This document shows positions 16,574 through 33,793 of a stretch of 64,000 bases of DNA, one piece after another. The stretch's first letter is position 1, and each line of letters opens with the position of its first letter. The notes beneath the pieces are model-generated. The model worked only from the letters and a program-made list of their open reading frames with translations, had not been told where the DNA came from and searched no databases. The stretch is from an uncultured bacterium. Its GTDB lineage: Bacteria; JAGRBM01; JAHCIT01. The stretch spans positions 2,664 through 66,663 of the forward strand of contig CAZMGV010000008.1 of assembly GCA_964565925.1 (NCBI GenBank), given 5' to 3'. The translations under genes were made by a program, and so were the position numbers.

Positions 16574-16610
16574 GCCTGCGCGCCTAGCAGTCTTCAGCAG
16601 TCTTTAACAG

Positions 16611-16650
16611 AGCGGCCGCTCCCCGGAAGGTGGGCGGCCGTTTTTTTTGT
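16611..16650 (+). terminator. rho-independent terminator
   Basis: GC stem cggccgc...gcggccg followed by TTTTTTTTG immediately after ORF 15656-16573. Confidence 0.7.
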
Positions 16651-16757
16651 TTGGGCCCGCCGGCCTGTGCCCAGTCTTGTTCCACGAAGCTTTAGCGAAG
16701 GGGAAAGCCGAAGGACGGAGGGGTAAGTCTCAACGGAGGAGGGTCAGGTAAATACTG

Positions 16758-17219
16758 TCATGGTATAGTTTTCGTGACGAAATATATCGCACAAACGATG
16801 CCTAAAAGCATCATACCGAATGCGCCTACTGCCGCACAGTAGCCGTGCCTAGCCCGCGACTCTATGAATTTCTTAACTTCGATCGCACGGGACGCATCAA
16901 TTTTTGCTAAGCGCGGGAATATGACGTAGCCACATAAAAATAAAGAAACCATCCATGAGAAACAGGGGATCCATACCCAATGTCCTGGAACTACTTGGCC
17001 GGGATCCTTACAATCACGATATAGCTTCAATAACCCGAGATAGACCGGCTGCATCCCTGCACTAATCGTAGCAATATGCTTCGCGGCATCCGTCAGGCTA
17101 CCGATGCTCCCCGAAATCAAATCCTCTCCCATTTTTTTATACGCCGGACTCATCTTTTCAAAACGCTCAAGCGCTTCTTGAACACTATCGGGCGCGCGTT
17201 CGCCATTGATCACAGCCAT
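16758..17219 (-). CDS. small two-TM membrane protein (island gene D)
   Basis: Two C-terminal hydrophobic helices (WVWIPCFSWMVSLFLCGYVIF; YCAAVGAFGMMLLGIVCAIYFV); 20-nt gap to upstream gene. Confidence 0.5.
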   Translation of the reverse strand: MAVINGERAPDSVQEALERFEKMSPAYKKMGEDLISGSIGSLTDAAKHIATISAGMQPVYLGLLKLYRDCKDPGQVVPGHWVWIPCFSWMVSLFLCGYVIFPRLAKIDASRAIEVKKFIESRARHGYCAAVGAFGMMLLGIVCAIYFVTKTIP

Positions 17220-17238
17220 CTCAGCGACCCCAAATCAC

Positions 17239-17451
17239 CTAAAATAGAAAGGTTACCTTGTTAGCTTTTCCACACTCTGAGCATATATCATACCGATTCT
17301 CAGCTGTCATAGGCGCGCGCACTTCCATTTTCATAATGGAATCCTTCTCCGCGGATAACATTGCTTCGACATCCTGGATCGAATACGTTTGGCTGTATAT
17401 GGAAGTATTTTCTTTCTTACAATTGAAACATGTATACTTTACCATTTTCAC
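17239..17451 (-). CDS. small zinc-ribbon protein (island gene C)
   Basis: CFNC...CSEC paired CxxC motifs in 70 aa; 31-nt gap to upstream ATPase gene. Confidence 0.5.
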   Translation of the reverse strand: MKMVKYTCFNCKKENTSIYSQTYSIQDVEAMLSAEKDSIMKMEVRAPMTAENRYDICSECGKANKVTFLF

Positions 17452-17481
17452 GAGACACCTCCCGGATATTCACAACTCATT

Positions 17482-19092
17482 TCATCCTGACAAATACTCA
17501 TAGACAGCTTCTCTAACCGAATTTTTTATCGCTCGGGATCTATGAGGCCCAACGTACTTTACTTTCTGAAGCTTCTCATCAGATGCTCTAAGCACTTGCT
17601 CTAGAGTAAGCAGATTAAGCTCCTTAAGTTTTACTTTTTGCCATTCCGTGACATCCAATAGCTCGATAGACTTAGAATATGCACTCTTAAGAATATCTGT
17701 AACATTAATGTCTGGATACAATTCTTTTTCAGGAGGCAAAGACTTGAATGATTCATGATTCATTCCGTATTCTGTCATAAGTTTAATTGACAGATTTTTT
17801 GCAAATTCAATCAATCTAATTCCTTTGATATCCATTACTTTCGACATCACGATTCCCAAATGCACCGCATAACGGGAGCCAATCTCCGCTCGTGTTGCCT
17901 TAATCCCAGTCGCATGCTCGCGAATGATCCCCGTATAAGATAAAAGTCGGAATGCGTGCCTGACGGCTTCAGGTGCATCACGGTGCAGCCAGATAAAGCA
18001 CGACGTTTTCTTATCGGATTTTAAGTACGCTTCATTTTTTTGATATAACTCGTTCAATACGTTGCCTTCGACAAAATTGCGGCCCCAATCTATTAAAGGT
18101 TTATGCCCAGTATAACTCTCAACTAACATGGAATGTTCGGACCATATGTCATCTCGGTAATACTCTCGGATAACCCGCCTCACATTATCTCCGTTTAGCT
18201 TCTTCGCTCTAAGAATCGTTTTAAAAAGTAGTCGTGGATTTCCATCAGAGGCATAAGCGAGTTCCGAAAAGTGCTCCCTATTTTCTTCAATTTGTTTAAT
18301 AAGCTGTAGGTCCCCCTGCTTTACTATCATCTCCTCCATATTCTTAATGTAATCTTCACTTAATACATCTCTATTAACATTTAAGAATGTAGCATCATGA
18401 GTAGGCTCAAATGTATCTCCGTAATTAGTGACTCCAGGGTATACGGCCGCATTACAAGTCATAAATGGACTTCGTAAATCTCTAAACAACGTAAAAAATT
18501 GTCTTTGTTGCTCTGGTTTTAAGATATGTGCGGCTTCATCAAAAAATACACAAAAGCGAGATATTCCAAAGCCGATACATATATCTTCAACAGCTTCTTT
18601 AAATTGATCTACACTCGGTAATTTCGCTATATCGACTTTTACATCTGGGTGTTCCCAAGATTGCTCATACGCTTGGACAATCTTTGCGATATCGACTTCG
18701 TCTTTGGAATATCTGATTGATGGCGATGGAGTGAGCGAAAACGCCGAACTATCCGTAAAACCATATCTTCTCATACTTCTAATTATTGATTGCCATAATT
18801 TCCCAAGCATCCAGTGCTGGAATTGCATCTGATCATTGGTCTGTATAAGTGTGCCCTTGACAAAACTAATATATATCGGGAGTACTTTGTTATTGGCGAA
18901 ATTGGCTGAAAGTTCTTGAATTGCAACTTTCAATAAAAATGATTTTCCAACGCCTCTACTGCCCACTACAATTGTCGGAGCTTTGGATTTCAGGGAGTCG
19001 ATGATCCGACGGTCTTGTTCAGATTCGACGAAATACTGAATTATATCTTCGTCTTTTATATCTTCCGTACGGAATATTAGTGGATCACTCAT
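17482..19092 (-). CDS. P-loop NTPase (AAA+/STAND-like) with C-terminal helix-hairpin-helix (RNAP alpha-CTD-like) domain (island gene B)
   Basis: Walker A VVGSRGVGKS, Walker B FCVFFDEAAH; C-terminus LTLEQVLRASDEKLQKVKYVGPHRSRAIKNSVREAV resembles alpha-CTD HhH; start at ATG 19092 with AAGGGA RBS (longer ORF to 19143 possible). Confidence 0.7.
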   Translation of the reverse strand: MSDPLIFRTEDIKDEDIIQYFVESEQDRRIIDSLKSKAPTIVVGSRGVGKSFLLKVAIQELSANFANNKVLPIYISFVKGTLIQTNDQMQFQHWMLGKLWQSIIRSMRRYGFTDSSAFSLTPSPSIRYSKDEVDIAKIVQAYEQSWEHPDVKVDIAKLPSVDQFKEAVEDICIGFGISRFCVFFDEAAHILKPEQQRQFFTLFRDLRSPFMTCNAAVYPGVTNYGDTFEPTHDATFLNVNRDVLSEDYIKNMEEMIVKQGDLQLIKQIEENREHFSELAYASDGNPRLLFKTILRAKKLNGDNVRRVIREYYRDDIWSEHSMLVESYTGHKPLIDWGRNFVEGNVLNELYQKNEAYLKSDKKTSCFIWLHRDAPEAVRHAFRLLSYTGIIREHATGIKATRAEIGSRYAVHLGIVMSKVMDIKGIRLIEFAKNLSIKLMTEYGMNHESFKSLPPEKELYPDINVTDILKSAYSKSIELLDVTEWQKVKLKELNLLTLEQVLRASDEKLQKVKYVGPHRSRAIKNSVREAVYEYLSG

Positions 19093-19096
19093 GGAA

Positions 19097-19837
19097 TTAT
19101 CCCTTACTATAATACTGTCTGAATATCGGAATACTCGAAACATTATCTTGGAATACCGGCTCTAGCAGTGCTTTATCTTCAGCATTTAAACCGGCCAGAT
19201 ACCTTGAAAATAACCCGATCTGGACGATAAAGAATACGCTATCTGCTAAGGTTAACCACTCTCGAAATACCGGTTCATTATATTCGATATCGGCCTTCAA
19301 AAAATCGGTTCGGGAGTAATTCCCGTGCACGTATTCTGAACAGGATCGATATACTTTTGCACAATGTTCTGAATAGATCGATGAATCTGTCTCTAATCCG
19401 GCGCAATATAACTTACAGTAAGAGGCGGAGAATACACCGTTGTCCTTGTTGGTCACTTCTGACCACTGCAAATCATATTTACCGGCTTTCCAGGCTCTAA
19501 AGTGATAATCATGCATCGAAAAATATATGACACCAATTGAGGCTTCCAAAAATTGGCGCAATTCAAATATTGCTTGTCGATATCCTCCAGTAGTCCCTTC
19601 ATATAGGGAGCGACTGAACCCCCAACAGCAATAGTTGAATAGTTCGACCTCCGGAGTTTCCTGAATAATATTTCGCCAAATCTCTAAATCGGCGCGCTTT
19701 GAATGGATTGCTGCCAGACGACCGGCGTGGCTAGATTGCAGCGCTAACGCCGAATTGCTTTGAACCTTCTGGATTAAGCGTGTGTATTCGCTTGTAAGCG
19801 CCGTCACCGCGATAGCTGGCTTTGAAATATCAGACAT
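19097..19837 (-). CDS. hypothetical protein (island gene A), Cys-rich, possible Rx6H (HEPN-like) motif
   Basis: 246 aa from ATG 19837 (TTG at 19849 also possible); coding-like periodicity; first gene of the island operon; RSCSEYVH motif. Confidence 0.5.
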   Translation of the reverse strand: MSDISKPAIAVTALTSEYTRLIQKVQSNSALALQSSHAGRLAAIHSKRADLEIWRNIIQETPEVELFNYCCWGFSRSLYEGTTGGYRQAIFELRQFLEASIGVIYFSMHDYHFRAWKAGKYDLQWSEVTNKDNGVFSASYCKLYCAGLETDSSIYSEHCAKVYRSCSEYVHGNYSRTDFLKADIEYNEPVFREWLTLADSVFFIVQIGLFSRYLAGLNAEDKALLEPVFQDNVSSIPIFRQYYSKG

Positions 19838-20099
19838 GTACGGTTCCAATCGTCTTTGATATCACAAAATATATACCAACTAGTAAAAGTGTTCAAAAAA
19901 ATAGTAGTAGGCGCCATCCTTATTCACAGGCTCACCACGAACGGTGCCGCTCTGAAAATGCACCTTCCGGTGCGGCTTTCCCCCGAAATTCCCGCCAGTT
20001 ACCAACTGTGACACTCCGTGACACACACGTCTGATAGGGTGCTTTGCAGGTAAGGGGGCATATGGGCCCCGCCATCACAAGTCTGCCGCTTCCATCCCT

Positions 20100-30018: not shown

Positions 30019-30939
30019 ATGTCATTGAGCAGGTTCATCCTGGCCCTGGCGGTACCGTGCGCGTTCGCGGTCACCGTGTACGCCGCACCCCGCTCCGAGC
30101 CGCGTACCCAGCAGGAATCCGTGCTGCTGGACCCCGAGCCCGCCGCCCACTGGAAAAAGCAGCTCCAGTCGGCCGACTGGCTCGACCGCTGGCAGGCGGT
30201 TTACGCGCTGGGCCTGACGGACAAGGATGCAGAAGGAGTTATCCCCTCGCTCGTCGAAGCGCTCAAGGACAAGGACGAACGCGTTCAGGCCGGCGCCGCC
30301 GATGCCCTGGGCAAGATCGGAGAACCCGCTCTGCCCGCGCTCCAGCAGCTGCTCCGGAGCGGCGAACGCCGTCAGCGCCGGTGGGCCGCCTATGCCCTGG
30401 GACATTCAGGCAGCAAGGACGCCATACCGTTTCTCATCCCGGCCATGACCGACACCCGCGACGACGTGCGCGAGAAAGCCGCCGAGTCGCTGAAACTCCT
30501 GGGCTACAGCGGCAAGGACGCCGTCCGCCTGTTCATGCAGGGGCTCAAGGATTCCGATCCCGCCGTCAGATTTCACTCGGCGATGGCGCTGGGGGCCCTT
30601 GCGGATCCAGCCTCGGTAACAGCTCTGACGGCGACACTCGACGATGCCAATATCAACATCAAGGGAGCCGCCTGTGAAGCGCTGGGCCGGATCGGAGCGC
30701 CGTCGCGCAAAGCCGTTCCCCGACTCGCCGCGCTGCTGTCGGACCATCCGTTCGTCATGGGTTTCGCCGTCACGGCACTGGGCGGAATCGGCCCCGACGC
30801 GGCGGAGGCGCTTCCCCTGCTCAAGGCACTCGCCACCGGAAACGGGCCCGAACCGCTGCGCCTGAAAGCGCGCTGGGCGGTCGAACGGATTGAGCAGCCG
30901 TCCGGTGACGACAACGGCCATACCGGTAATACGCCGTGA
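30019..30939 (+). CDS. secreted HEAT-repeat (PBS-lyase-like) protein
   Basis: Signal peptide; repeated ...VR..AA.ALG.IG.. HEAT-like units. Confidence 0.65.
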   Translation: MSLSRFILALAVPCAFAVTVYAAPRSEPRTQQESVLLDPEPAAHWKKQLQSADWLDRWQAVYALGLTDKDAEGVIPSLVEALKDKDERVQAGAADALGKIGEPALPALQQLLRSGERRQRRWAAYALGHSGSKDAIPFLIPAMTDTRDDVREKAAESLKLLGYSGKDAVRLFMQGLKDSDPAVRFHSAMALGALADPASVTALTATLDDANINIKGAACEALGRIGAPSRKAVPRLAALLSDHPFVMGFAVTALGGIGPDAAEALPLLKALATGNGPEPLRLKARWAVERIEQPSGDDNGHTGNTP

Positions 30940-31523
30940 TCGAAGCCACCCGCGAGCCGGGATTCTTTTCCGTCCTGTGCGTGAAAGTTCCGGGTGCCCC
31001 GGACCCGGCCGCCCGGTTCTGGCGCCTGTTTTTCGGCGCCGGCATGGCATCCGAAGCCGTCCGGGTAATCTGGTTCCTGATCAAGGGCGGAGCGCCGGAC
31101 GTGGGCGCGTTCGATATTATCCTCGGGCTGGCGCTGACAGCCGGCCTCGCCGGGTTTCTGTTCACCCACACGGCCTGGAGCCGGCCGCTCGCCGCCAAAG
31201 GCCGGTTCGTGTTCAGCCAGTACGGGGTGTCGTTCGCCCGCCAGAACCGGACGGATGAGGTCGCGCCCGACTGGAAACTGGGCTGGGATGCGATCAGTCG
31301 CGTCGAATTCGTCAGCGATAACCGGGGGTTCGTCATCCGGCTCGAAACCGCCAACGAAACCGCCGGCGGACCCAGAGAAATCCTCGCCGATCAGGTCCGG
31401 TTCGAGAACTGCCCGGGCGAAGTTAAAGCCGCGAAAGTTCCGGACTCCGTACCGCGTCCGTTCGCGGCGCGCCTCATCGTCCGCGCGATCGCCTGTTTCG
31501 CCCCGCCGCAGCTGCTTTCGTAG
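30936..31523 (+). CDS. hypothetical membrane protein
   Basis: Two hydrophobic helices; 3' end carries copy 1 of a 34-bp direct repeat. Confidence 0.45.
   Translation: MIEATREPGFFSVLCVKVPGAPDPAARFWRLFFGAGMASEAVRVIWFLIKGGAPDVGAFDIILGLALTAGLAGFLFTHTAWSRPLAAKGRFVFSQYGVSFARQNRTDEVAPDWKLGWDAISRVEFVSDNRGFVIRLETANETAGGPREILADQVRFENCPGEVKAAKVPDSVPRPFAARLIVRAIACFAPPQLLS
31483..31516. repeat. 34-bp direct repeat copy 1 (gcgcgatcgcctgtttcgccccgccgcagctgct)
   Basis: Identical copy at 32677-32710; copy 1 is the 3' end of ORF 30936-31523. Confidence 0.8.
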
Positions 31524-31546
31524 ACCGGCCGTTCACAGCACACGCG

Positions 31547-32454
31547 CTACTCTTTGCCCGCCTTGAACCCCTTCAAATCGATAAAGGGCGTGGCTCCGCC
31601 GGAAACCTGGGGCAGGACACCGTCCCATTTATCGATCGCCTTGCTCTGGATGAGGTTCGGCGTGAGCGTCGACTGCAGCAGACGGTTGGCTTCAGCCTGG
31701 GCCTTGGCACGGACCACTATCGATTGCGCCTCGCCCTCGGCCTTGGCCACTTCGGCCTTGGCCAGCATTTCATTCTTCTGAAGCTCGTATTCGGCCTGCT
31801 GGGCCTGCTGCTGCGCCGCCATCTTCTGCTGCATCTGCACTTCGAGGGACTGCGGCAGATGGCTCGCGCCCAGGTTCACCTTGTCCAGAAAGAAACCCAT
31901 CTTGGCGATCTCGATACCGAGGTTGGTCTGGATCGCATCCTGGAGTTCGCTCCGCTTGGCCGAAATCACCTCTGACAGCGACATCTGTCCCGCAGTGTTC
32001 TGCGCGACCGTGATGATGGTCCGCCGGATGAAGGTCGCTTCGATATCCGAAATGTCCGCCCCGCGGAATGCCTTGAACACCTGGTCGGCCTTATCCTCGG
32101 AGGTATTGTAGGTGACGGAGATATCCTGGCGTATGTGCTGGCCCTCACGGGTCGGCAGGTCAATGCTGTCGTCTAGTTCGGAGGAACCCTCGCCGCTCCG
32201 GCGGACCATCGTGTAGGTTCGGAGCGCCGTGGGGTAACTCTGGACCTGGGTAACCCATGGAGCACGCCAGGCCATCCCCTGGGGCACCGTCCGCAAAGAT
32301 CCGGTCCACCGGTTAAAGACGACCCCTGTGTTGCCGGGCTCGATCACGGAATAGGAGCTGAAAAACAGCGTCACGAGAATGAGCGAAAACGCTATCGGGA
32401 CCGCTCGGCTCAGCAGTTTCGCCCAGAACTCCGGTGAATCGTTGTCGTTGCTCA
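31547..32454 (-). CDS. SPFH/band-7 (HflK/C, prohibitin-like) membrane protein
   Basis: N-terminal TM helix then SPFH domain; start ATG at 32454 (MSNDNDSPEF), coupled (ATGA) to upstream small ORF; longer track ORF is a spurious extension. Confidence 0.75.
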
Positions 32455-32637
32455 TGCTTCTGGCTCCCCTTTGCCCTTTGAATAGTCGGTAACGTCTATG
32501 ACCCTGCCGCCCCCGGTCCTCTTTTTCGGACGGAACAGTTCCAGAAGATAGGTCTCCAGCCGTCGCTGAAGAGGCCGCATCAGGAACGTAAGTCCCATAA
32601 CGGCGGCCACCAGCATCATGAATTCCGCAAATGTCAT
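32452..32637 (-). CDS. small membrane protein co-transcribed with SPFH gene
   Basis: 61 aa, one TM helix (FMMLVAAVMGLTFLM); stop overlaps SPFH start. Confidence 0.45.
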   Translation of the reverse strand: MTFAEFMMLVAAVMGLTFLMRPLQRRLETYLLELFRPKKRTGGGRVIDVTDYSKGKGEPEA

Positions 32638-32676
32638 ATTCAGACGGATTCAGACTAGCACGCCCCGGCGGCCGAG

Positions 32677-32710
32677 GCGCGATCGCCTGTTTCGCCCCGC
32701 CGCAGCTGCT
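32677..32710. repeat. 34-bp direct repeat copy 2
   Basis: Identical to 31483-31516; also ends in an in-frame stop in the same reading frame. Confidence 0.8.
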
Positions 32711-32924
32711 CAGGTAGCCGGAAGGTCCTCCCCGGGCCCCAATCACAGAACTTTCGTTGACGCCCGAAACGGGCTGTGTTATCGAACCGAAACCTTTGTG
32801 ATTTCACTTAGGTAAACGGCCTTGGGAGGCCGATACGGACAAGCGAGTCCTTATCGGATTTCCGGGCACGCACCAGATGGCTGGCTAGTGGCTGACAAGC
32901 GACCGGCAACCAGCCGATGGCTCA

Positions 32925-32974
32925 ACTGCGGATCAGCTTACACAACTTTCAAAAAGTATTGAAAGTTTCCGCAG
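32925..32974. promoter_or_regulatory. nested palindrome (candidate operator) upstream of Mla-like operon
   Basis: ctgcgga-N11-aactttcaa-aaagtat-tgaaagtt-tccgcag. Confidence 0.4.
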
Positions 32975-33019: not shown

Positions 33020-33793
33020 TTGATCGAGATCCGCAACGTCAGCAAACGGTTCGGCGAGCACAAGCTGCTCGACAACGTGAGCCTGACCGTGAATGCCGGC
33101 GAAACGGTCGTGCTGATCGGACCGTCGGGGCACGGGAAAAGCGTGCTGGTGAAGATCTGCGCGGGTCTGGTCGTCCCCGACGGAGGCGAAGTGTTCATCG
33201 ACGGCCAGTCGATCACCACGGCCCGCGGCCCCGCGCTGGACAATATCCGCCGCCGCATGGGCATGCTGTTCCAGAACTACGCCCTGTTCGACTCCATGAC
33301 CGTTTACGAGAATCTCGCCTTCCCGCTGCGCACCAACGACAACCTTTCCGAGGCCGAGCTGGACAAGCGGGTCATGCACAACCTGTCGCTGGTAAAACTC
33401 GCCCACGCGGCGCAGCTGAGGACCAGCGAACTGTCGGGCGGCATGAAGAAGCGCGTGGGGATCGCCCGCGCGTGGATCCGCAACCCGGAAGTGATCCTCT
33501 ACGACGAGCCCACGGCGGGCCTGGACCCGGTCACGGGCGAGCGGATCAACACGTTCCTCAAGGATTTCGCAAAACAGAGCCGCACGACGGCGCTGGTCGT
33601 GACGCAGGAAATGCTGTCGGCGTTTTCGGTCGCCGACCGCCTGGCGTTCGTCTACAACGGCAAGATCATGCAGTGCGATACGCCGCAGAAGATGCGCGAA
33701 TCGAAGATCCCCGAAGTGGCCCAGTTCATCAACGGCCTGCGCGAAGGCCCGCTGACGAACGCCGGAGTCGTGAAGCGCCGGGAGTCCATGTGA
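33020..33793 (+). CDS. ABC transporter ATP-binding protein, MlaF-like (copy 1)
   Basis: Walker A GPSGHGKS, signature LSGGMKKRV, Walker B ILYDEP; TTG start with RBS agggaag. Confidence 0.85.
   Translation: MIEIRNVSKRFGEHKLLDNVSLTVNAGETVVLIGPSGHGKSVLVKICAGLVVPDGGEVFIDGQSITTARGPALDNIRRRMGMLFQNYALFDSMTVYENLAFPLRTNDNLSEAELDKRVMHNLSLVKLAHAAQLRTSELSGGMKKRVGIARAWIRNPEVILYDEPTAGLDPVTGERINTFLKDFAKQSRTTALVVTQEMLSAFSVADRLAFVYNGKIMQCDTPQKMRESKIPEVAQFINGLREGPLTNAGVVKRRESM

Follow-up and report, generated by a model that had tools for sequence, protein, structure and literature searches.

A perfect 34-nt repeat of a gene end around a conserved SPFH operon may record an old insertion and a later, lineage-specific re-homogenisation

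We describe a two-gene cassette, coding for an SPFH/Band_7 membrane protein and a 61-residue partner, that lies between two copies of a perfect 34-nucleotide (nt) direct repeat in a 64,000-nt stretch of DNA from an uncultured bacterium (assembly GCA_964565925.1, contig CAZMGV010000008.1), hereafter the window. One repeat copy is the coding end of an open reading frame (ORF) of 195 amino acids (aa), ORF195; the other lies on the far side of the cassette, before an Mla-like operon. The features of the locus are as follows.

30019-30939, plus strand: HEAT-repeat gene upstream of ORF195, translationally coupled to it through a 4-nt GTGA overlap
30936..31523, plus strand: ORF195, 195 aa, from the ORF list, hydrophobic in segments near its N-terminus and assigned to no known family; the duplicated sequence makes up its final 12 codons
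31483..31516, plus strand: repeat copy 1, the native 3' coding end of ORF195 (AIACFAPPQLL), with weaker similarity to about 31528 (TTCGTAGACCGG)
31547..32455, minus strand: SPFH/Band-7 (prohibitin/HflK/QmcA-like) membrane-scaffold gene, 302 aa, Pfam PF01145
32452..32637, minus strand: partner ORF, from the ORF list, for a 61-aa single-pass membrane protein with a hydrophobic N-terminus
32654..32674, minus strand: 21-nt block ACTAGCACGCCCCGGCGGCCG between the small-ORF start and copy 2, identical in the related contig L102
32677..32710, plus strand: repeat copy 2, a non-coding remnant of the ORF195 tail that stays similar through CAGGTAGCCGG to about 32721
32743..32820, plus strand: conserved intergenic block (TCACAGAACTTTCGTTGACGCCCGAAA...GTGATTTCACTTAGGTAAACGG), common to occupied and empty relatives
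33020..33793, plus strand: first ABC ATPase of the Mla-like operon (Pfam ABC_tran), the anchor gene for related loci

The repeat, GCGCGATCGCCTGTTTCGCCCCGCCGCAGCTGCT, occurs in the window at these two places only. No further copy was found there with up to three mismatches allowed, and 100 shuffles returned 0 matches, in line with a chance expectation of none. Similarity reaches beyond the 34 nt, to 41 nt at 93% identity or, with one indel, to about 46 nt through GTAG(A)CCGG (copy 1 reads TTCGTAGACCGG where copy 2 has CAGGTAG-CCGG), while the perfect identity itself ends abruptly at both borders. Copy 1 encodes the tail ...AIACFAPPQLLS of ORF195, copy 2 in the same register reads ...AIACFAPPQLLR, and an in-frame TAG follows each. 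Relative to the cassette genes, copy 1 sits 31-64 nt past the stop of the SPFH gene and copy 2 occupies the interval 40-73 nt ahead of the ATG of the small ORF. Two palindromes, GCGATCGC and CAGCTG, fall within the repeat. The initial annotation of this DNA had recorded both the perfect repeat and the stop after each copy, as we do here; it had also asked whether the 34-mer might belong to a widespread genomic repeat family, a reading for which the two copies in the window give no ground. The repeat is supported by a separately built assembly, Logan contig L001 (SRR14271334, 1220 nt, possibly from the window's own read set), which is 100% identical to the cassette and carries 30 nt of the repeat at each end. 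Ends of this kind would be expected where a graph with k = 31, the value used for Logan, breaks at a 34-nt repeat.

A structured RNA element or a terminator could be ruled out as the source of the repeat: an Rfam search of the region gave no match, no tRNA or tmRNA target was found beside it, the junction regions folded no better than their shuffles (z 0.1 to 1.6), and terminator-like matches at the locus did not exceed shuffle expectation. A HIP1-like family of GCGATCGC repeats was rejected as well (5 copies observed against 5.5 expected). Inverted repeats were sought at the cassette ends and a compositional anomaly across the cassette region, and neither was found.

The 1160 nt between the repeat copies hold the SPFH gene and the 61-aa ORF, both on the minus strand, and the TGA of the small ORF overlaps the SPFH ATG in an ATGA motif, which bears out the earlier description of two translationally coupled genes in about 1.16 kb. 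The SPFH protein matches Pfam PF01145 over residues 37-227 (E 1.6e-27; 97.1 bits against a cut-off of 23.6), with distant matches among PDB sequences to QmcA (3.8e-6) and prohibitin (1.6e-5) and 24.6 bits against the 660-bit cut-off of the NCBIfam HflK model; we infer its function from family membership alone. Its homologues number 1427 at E <= 0.001, some with source labels of Bdellovibrionota, Oligoflexia or Bacteriovorax, and identity is 78-100% throughout the best 120 clusters listed. Across that list the protein (P0005-P0123 set) stands at 78-86% aa identity in genomes of widely differing GC content. At the DNA level the operon is only about 75% identical to its counterparts in other genomes, some of them AT-rich, and high protein identity with so little DNA identity points to strong purifying selection and not to recent transfer. 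The conservation of this clade is unusually strong for a bacterial SPFH protein. The neighbourhoods of the operon elsewhere all differ (catalase/GST, peptidase S8, SNF2/PPK2, DUF4410). The closest SPFH matches elsewhere (L094-L101, 85-86% aa) come from distant organisms, some AT-rich, and from other gene contexts, and were for these reasons rejected as close relatives of the window locus.

The 61-aa protein has no Pfam or NCBIfam match at E<0.01 and no PADLOC match. A partner of the NfeD family was not found in the operon; the small protein belongs to a family of its own, of about 60 aa in length, for which 1.84 billion proteins yielded 36 representative clusters. In 6/6 loci examined, the present one included, a homologous ORF (MTFAE...PLQRRLE...IDVTDYSK) runs up to or across the start of the SPFH gene; its positions directly upstream of that gene in the other five are as follows.

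L094: 5174-5359
L097: 1544-1726
L098: 9822-10004
L101: 998-1192
L102: 54-242

Small protein and SPFH protein are thus apparently encoded as a strongly conserved core two-gene unit, in which the former may be an NfeD-independent SPFH partner. The 21-nt block at 32654-32674 is a candidate promoter of this operon, a suggestion that we draw from an extended -10-like motif, TGCTAGTCT, read by eye on its minus strand; a consensus promoter scan found nothing there.

Whether the cassette is a fixed part of this locus can be judged from its relatives. Related loci were reached through ORF195 (L002, L003) or through the Mla ATPase (L102-L106, at 90%, 82% and 80% identity), and all close relatives are known from short contigs. 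L103-L106 represent one species-level lineage, used as outgroup; L104 and L106 begin inside the ORF194 tail.

L002: ORF195 73% aa; occupied, left junction, with the SPFH 3' end after the ORF195 stop
L102: ORF195 not covered, ATPase 90% aa; occupied, right junction, with SPFH 5' end, small ORF, intergenic region and ATPase
L003: ORF195 63% aa; empty
L103, L105: ORF195 64.6% nt in L103, ATPase 82% aa; empty, running from the HEAT-repeat gene through ORF194 and 248 nt to the Mla operon

Where the site is empty, the homologue of ORF195 leads directly into a conserved promoter block (TCACAGAACTTTCGTTGACG...), and the cassette is a true presence/absence indel at the 3' end of ORF195. The initial annotation had proposed a search for just such a site, and had held that a cassette present in all relatives would speak against an insertion; empty sites exist in L003 and in L103-L105. 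The block at 32743-32820 is found in the empty L003, in the occupied L102 and, in diverged form, in L103. It sets the right-hand limit of the variable part and probably represents the promoter region of the Mla operon. Upstream of it, the TAG of copy 2 precedes the -35-like TTGACG of the Mla operon by 39 nt, and in the outgroup the ORF stop precedes TTGACC by 29 nt. This layout fits the possibility that copy 2 marks the original gene end and that the operon entered upstream of it, and we infer that the event was an insertion rather than a loss.

The relatives also date the arrangement. Between the window and L102, identity is 90.3% in the small-ORF region, 87% in the Mla intergenic region, 89% at the 5' end of the ATPase and 21/21 in the block ACTAGCACGCCCCGGCGGCCG; between the window and L002, 78/89 nt agree at the SPFH 3' end. 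Cassette divergence is in step with that of the flanks (about 88-90% identity), so the cassette was at this site before the lineages split. At the position of copy 2, L102 reads GCGCGCCCGTCCGGTTCTCCCCGCCCCGGCAATTGAAATAG, which matches the window repeat at 23/34 positions and keeps the GCGCG start, the CCCCGCC core and a TAG at the equivalent position, with nearly the same spacing between the conserved flanks in the two sequences (89 vs 90 nt). In this fixed and pre-specified register, shuffles give a mean of 11.5 (sd 2.6) and the best other register 18. Copy 2 was therefore already present before the window and L102 parted, and has since decayed in L102. Copy 1, by hand count, agrees with the window repeat at 27/34 positions in L002 and 21/34 in L003; as L002 differs at 7/34 positions and the two window copies differ at none, homogenisation came after the split. 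Seven substitutions are specific to the window where L002 and L003 agree, and five of them (positions 2, 5, 16, 27 and 29, again counted by hand) carry the base of the L102 copy 2, for a binomial p of about 0.045. Among the five are the changes that put Phe in place of Tyr and Gln in place of Glu in the ORF195 tail, and the pattern suggests that bases may have passed between the copies in both directions.

With moderate confidence, we propose an old insertion of a conserved SPFH operon followed by lineage-specific re-homogenisation of the flanking duplicate. In an ancestor, the small-protein/SPFH operon would have inserted at the very 3' end of ORF195, directly before the Mla promoter, with some 40-60 nt of the ORF195 tail and its stop codon left on either side. 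Of the two copies, one would have remained the gene end and the other would have become a non-coding relic before the SPFH operon. Left alone, such a relic would decay, as it appears to have done in L102. In the window lineage, short-tract gene conversion between the copies would have restored 34 nt of identity, and probably moved relic-type bases into ORF195 at the same time. Understood in this way, the repeat is the footprint of an insertion together with concerted evolution, and not a working attachment site.

Several observations weigh against this proposal. Free local alignment gives no significant result for an ancestral copy 2 in L102; L102 copy 2 agrees with L002 copy 1 at 20/34 positions, and other registers reach 19/34. 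The region is GC-rich and of low complexity, and recurring CGCCCCGCC-like motifs inflate similarity. The argument from mosaic sites is only marginally significant. A tract of 34 nt is short for RecA-dependent conversion. L002 and L102, from the sibling metagenomes JGI 3300009347 and 3300009351, are separate short contigs that we assume to represent one genome, and it is because they are taken as one lineage that the sister lineage can be said to carry the cassette without a perfect repeat. The tree is weakly resolved: with L103 as outgroup, quartet counts on the right side favour L102 with L003 (9:3:2), and in ORF195 the nucleotides are unresolved (19:17:13) and the amino acids favour L002 with L003 (7:3:0). 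Should L003 be nested among occupied lineages, a second event would be needed (a loss, an allelic replacement or a second gain). Finally, the empty site of L003 was rejected as a product of recombination between copy 1 and copy 2, since its sequence does not fit one.

The junction in L003, a contig from JGI 3300036768, deserves a closer description, in a comparison of L003 545-610 with L102 238-350. L003 shares TCATAACCTG with L102 exactly at the L102 small-ORF start, and between this motif and the shared CTTCCTCACAG there are 51 nt in L003 and 95 nt in L102, which are unrelated. Downstream of CTTCCTCACAG, the two contigs are 92-95% identical. A simple deletion from L102 was rejected, as only TCATAACCTG and the block beginning with CTTCCTCACAG are common to the two. 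The comparison speaks less for a clean excision than for a replacement of the allele or some complex rearrangement.

One alternative is an active or recently active integrative cassette, with the 34-mers as left and right attachment sites (attL and attR) and with mobilisation in trans for want of an integrase of its own. Entry would have been through site-specific recombination, or through homologous recombination of the Campbell type with an excised circle; the cassette could leave again, and repeated rounds of exit and re-entry would keep the copies identical. Duplication of a gene's 3' end as direct repeats, with a stop restored in each copy, is the classic attachment (att) architecture; the sharp borders of the identity agree with it, and presence varies among close relatives, whose weakly resolved tree hints at gain or loss on more than one occasion. 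We nevertheless hold it to be unlikely. A scan of some 60 ORFs over the 64 kb found no integrase, transposase, resolvase or recombinase domain; the occupied L102 has a degenerate copy 2; the equal divergence of cassette and flanks argues against recent transfer; the composition shows no anomaly; and in the four other genomes where it could be checked the SPFH operon has no flanking direct repeats of at least 10 nt. Direct repeats at the borders and an empty single-copy site are thus found, although the L003 junction is not a clean single-repeat product, and an integrase in or next to the element is not, nor is evidence of mobility or recent transfer. The initial annotation had read the locus as a site-specific insertion or a segmental duplication. 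The insertion at the 3' end of ORF195, the duplicated gene end and the empty site all stand; site specificity and recency are not supported, given the 23/34 match of copy 2 in L102, the shared divergence and the lack of a recombinase. A more far-reaching form, in which the 34-mers would be working sites for an unlinked recombinase, or for RecA acting on minimal homology, that reversibly excises and re-inserts the SPFH operon, is in our estimate a long shot. If it were true, the locus would be a heritable on/off switch for a membrane-scaffold operon that also alters the last residues of ORF195, and repeated cycles would explain both the perfect identity in the window and the patchy presence among close relatives.

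The same evidence bears on three further accounts. A template switch or repair event might recently have pasted about 41-46 nt of the ORF195 tail upstream of the SPFH operon in the window lineage only, its position at the cassette border being coincidental. That the perfect repeat is seen in this lineage alone, and that L102 copy 2 is not significantly similar to ORF195 tails in free local alignment, would agree with such a patch, which we consider improbable all the same: a fresh patch would be expected to lengthen the region or to overwrite unrelated sequence, whereas the spacing is unchanged and L102 matches at the exact register at twice the expected level, with GCGCG, CCCCGCC and TAG in place, and for a patch to have landed precisely at the far border of an indel would be highly coincidental. 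Selection on function could also keep the 34-mers identical, through a single regulator bound at both (for example by looping out the SPFH operon) or through pairing in trans of the ORF195 mRNA 3' end with an SPFH leader in which the complement of copy 2 would be present. The placement of the copies just before the small ORF and just after the SPFH gene, the two palindromes and the perfect identity in an otherwise fast-evolving ORF195 tail lend this some appeal, but the repeat is not conserved in L102 or L002, it has no significant RNA structure, Rfam match or GCGATCGC enrichment, and the -10-like motif read by eye would place the transcription start downstream of copy 2 and so leave copy 2 outside the mRNA; we give the idea very little credence. 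Least credible of all is an assembly artefact, in which a short repeat would have led to a wrong join. The DNA does appear to come from a metagenome-assembled contig, and a k=31 graph alone cannot separate A-R-C-R-B from A-R-B plus a circle. Modern assemblers, however, use k-mers and reads longer than 34 nt, so the junctions should be read through; both repeat contexts are present in Logan reads, and independently assembled relatives show the left junction (L002) and the right junction (L102).

Other explanations for the cassette were considered and rejected. The annotation had noted that SPFH modules are frequent cargo of defence and stress islands, an idea that did not hold up here: against PADLOC the SPFH protein gave only insignificant partial matches (E 2.9e-4 and 7e-3) and ORF195 none, and the neighbours are housekeeping genes (glycerol kinase, YceG (mltG-like), RuvX, ArgG, the HEAT-repeat protein and ORF195, with the Mla operon beyond). 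A transposon or insertion sequence would be expected to leave terminal inverted repeats and a transposase, which are lacking, and a duplication of 2-14 bp, as against the 34-46 nt seen here. An integron gene cassette was set aside because no attC-like fold and no integrase were found.

ORF195 itself is a rare protein. It has no Pfam or NCBIfam match, exact look-ups returned no gene on record, and protein-pattern scans of genome and metagenome contigs for its relatives found nothing; only two relatives turned up in 5.8 billion proteins, which with the L103 homologue makes four known lineages. Its extreme C-terminus differs in each of them (S*, NPPAGS*, ITC*, GNL*). The HEAT-repeat gene and ORF195 stand as a pair next to the Mla operon in all relatives found, and their overlap is kept in L103 (4635-6109).

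The Mla-like operon downstream codes for two ABC ATPases, a pair of MlaE permeases and MlaD. At 32945-32966, about 55 nt before its first ATPase starts, lies a perfect 22-nt palindrome, ACTTTCAAAAAGTATTGAAAGT; the 33-nt block around it (32937-32969) is unchanged in L003, almost unchanged in L102 and missing from L103, which is more distant. This palindrome is a candidate operator for the Mla-like operon, as its position and conservation suggest. A search for the conserved palindrome CTTTCAAAAAGTATTGAAAG gave 90 loci, which proved throughout to be chance matches in unrelated and mostly AT-rich genomes, and BLAST of the loci from these searches against the window matched L001-L003 only.

Elsewhere in the window, positions 16600-19900 form an island of low GC content (38-45%, against about 65% on either side) with three minus-strand ORFs.

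16758-17219, minus strand: ORF of 153 aa, no family
17482-19143, minus strand: ORF of 553 aa with an N-terminal ORC/CDC6-like AAA domain (PF24389, E 2.9e-13)
19097-19849, minus strand: ORF of 250 aa, no family

PADLOC matches in the island were only weak, and no clear flanking repeats were found around it; it was probably acquired horizontally.

Our proposal carries a caution for the reading of such loci: a gene end duplicated as a perfect direct repeat around a small cassette has the look of a recent site-specific insertion, and here the relatives indicate an old one. If the proposal is right, the locus would show how, in nature, the coding end of a gene and its non-coding relic can evolve in concert over a very short tract, with relic bases apparently fed back into the ORF195 protein tail. 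As a by-product, we note a strongly conserved and apparently undescribed pairing of an approximately 60-aa protein with a prohibitin/HflK-like SPFH protein, which is present in lineages labelled Bdellovibrionota or Oligoflexia and may merit functional study.

Among known systems, the arrangement most resembles elements of the e14 or phage 21 type at icd in Escherichia coli and att elements at tRNA ends, in which the insert sits in the 3' end of a gene, supplies a replacement end with a stop, and leaves a pseudo 3' end on its other side, so that attL and attR are homologous direct repeats. The duplicated icd' pseudo-end of e14 is reported to measure 163 bp, and the figure for DLP12 at argU is 47 bp (PMC6379469). 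Unlike these elements, the cassette is only 1.16 kb long and consists of two housekeeping-type genes, with no integrase, excisionase or phage genes; its second copy is decayed in a relative, its repeat is perfect in one lineage only, and it is known here from sequence alone. Integron gene cassettes are likewise small units without a recombinase of their own that vary in presence at a fixed site. They differ from the present cassette, which has no attC-like imperfect palindrome, no significant fold and no intI, is flanked by direct repeats of a host gene end, holds two genes and has its promoter probably in the upstream flank.

The homogenisation that we propose is akin to short-tract gene conversion: two segments 1.2 kb apart are identical here while their orthologues have diverged (7/34 and 11/34), with sharp borders and a hint of a mosaic. 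Conversion of the usual kind differs in that the tract here is 34 nt, and one partner is coding and the other a non-coding relic. A length of 34 nt is near the lower limit for homologous pairing.

Prokaryotic SPFH operons, for their part, have been grouped into SPFH1/2 with NfeD, SPFH3 (HflK/C) and SPFH4 (p-prohibitins). With the NfeD-SPFH operons (PMC2636767) the cassette shares a Band_7 protein with an N-terminal hydrophobic segment, a small membrane partner encoded upstream and a two-gene operon. It departs from them in having a partner of about 60 aa that does not match NfeD, and in belonging to a clade that is unusually conserved.

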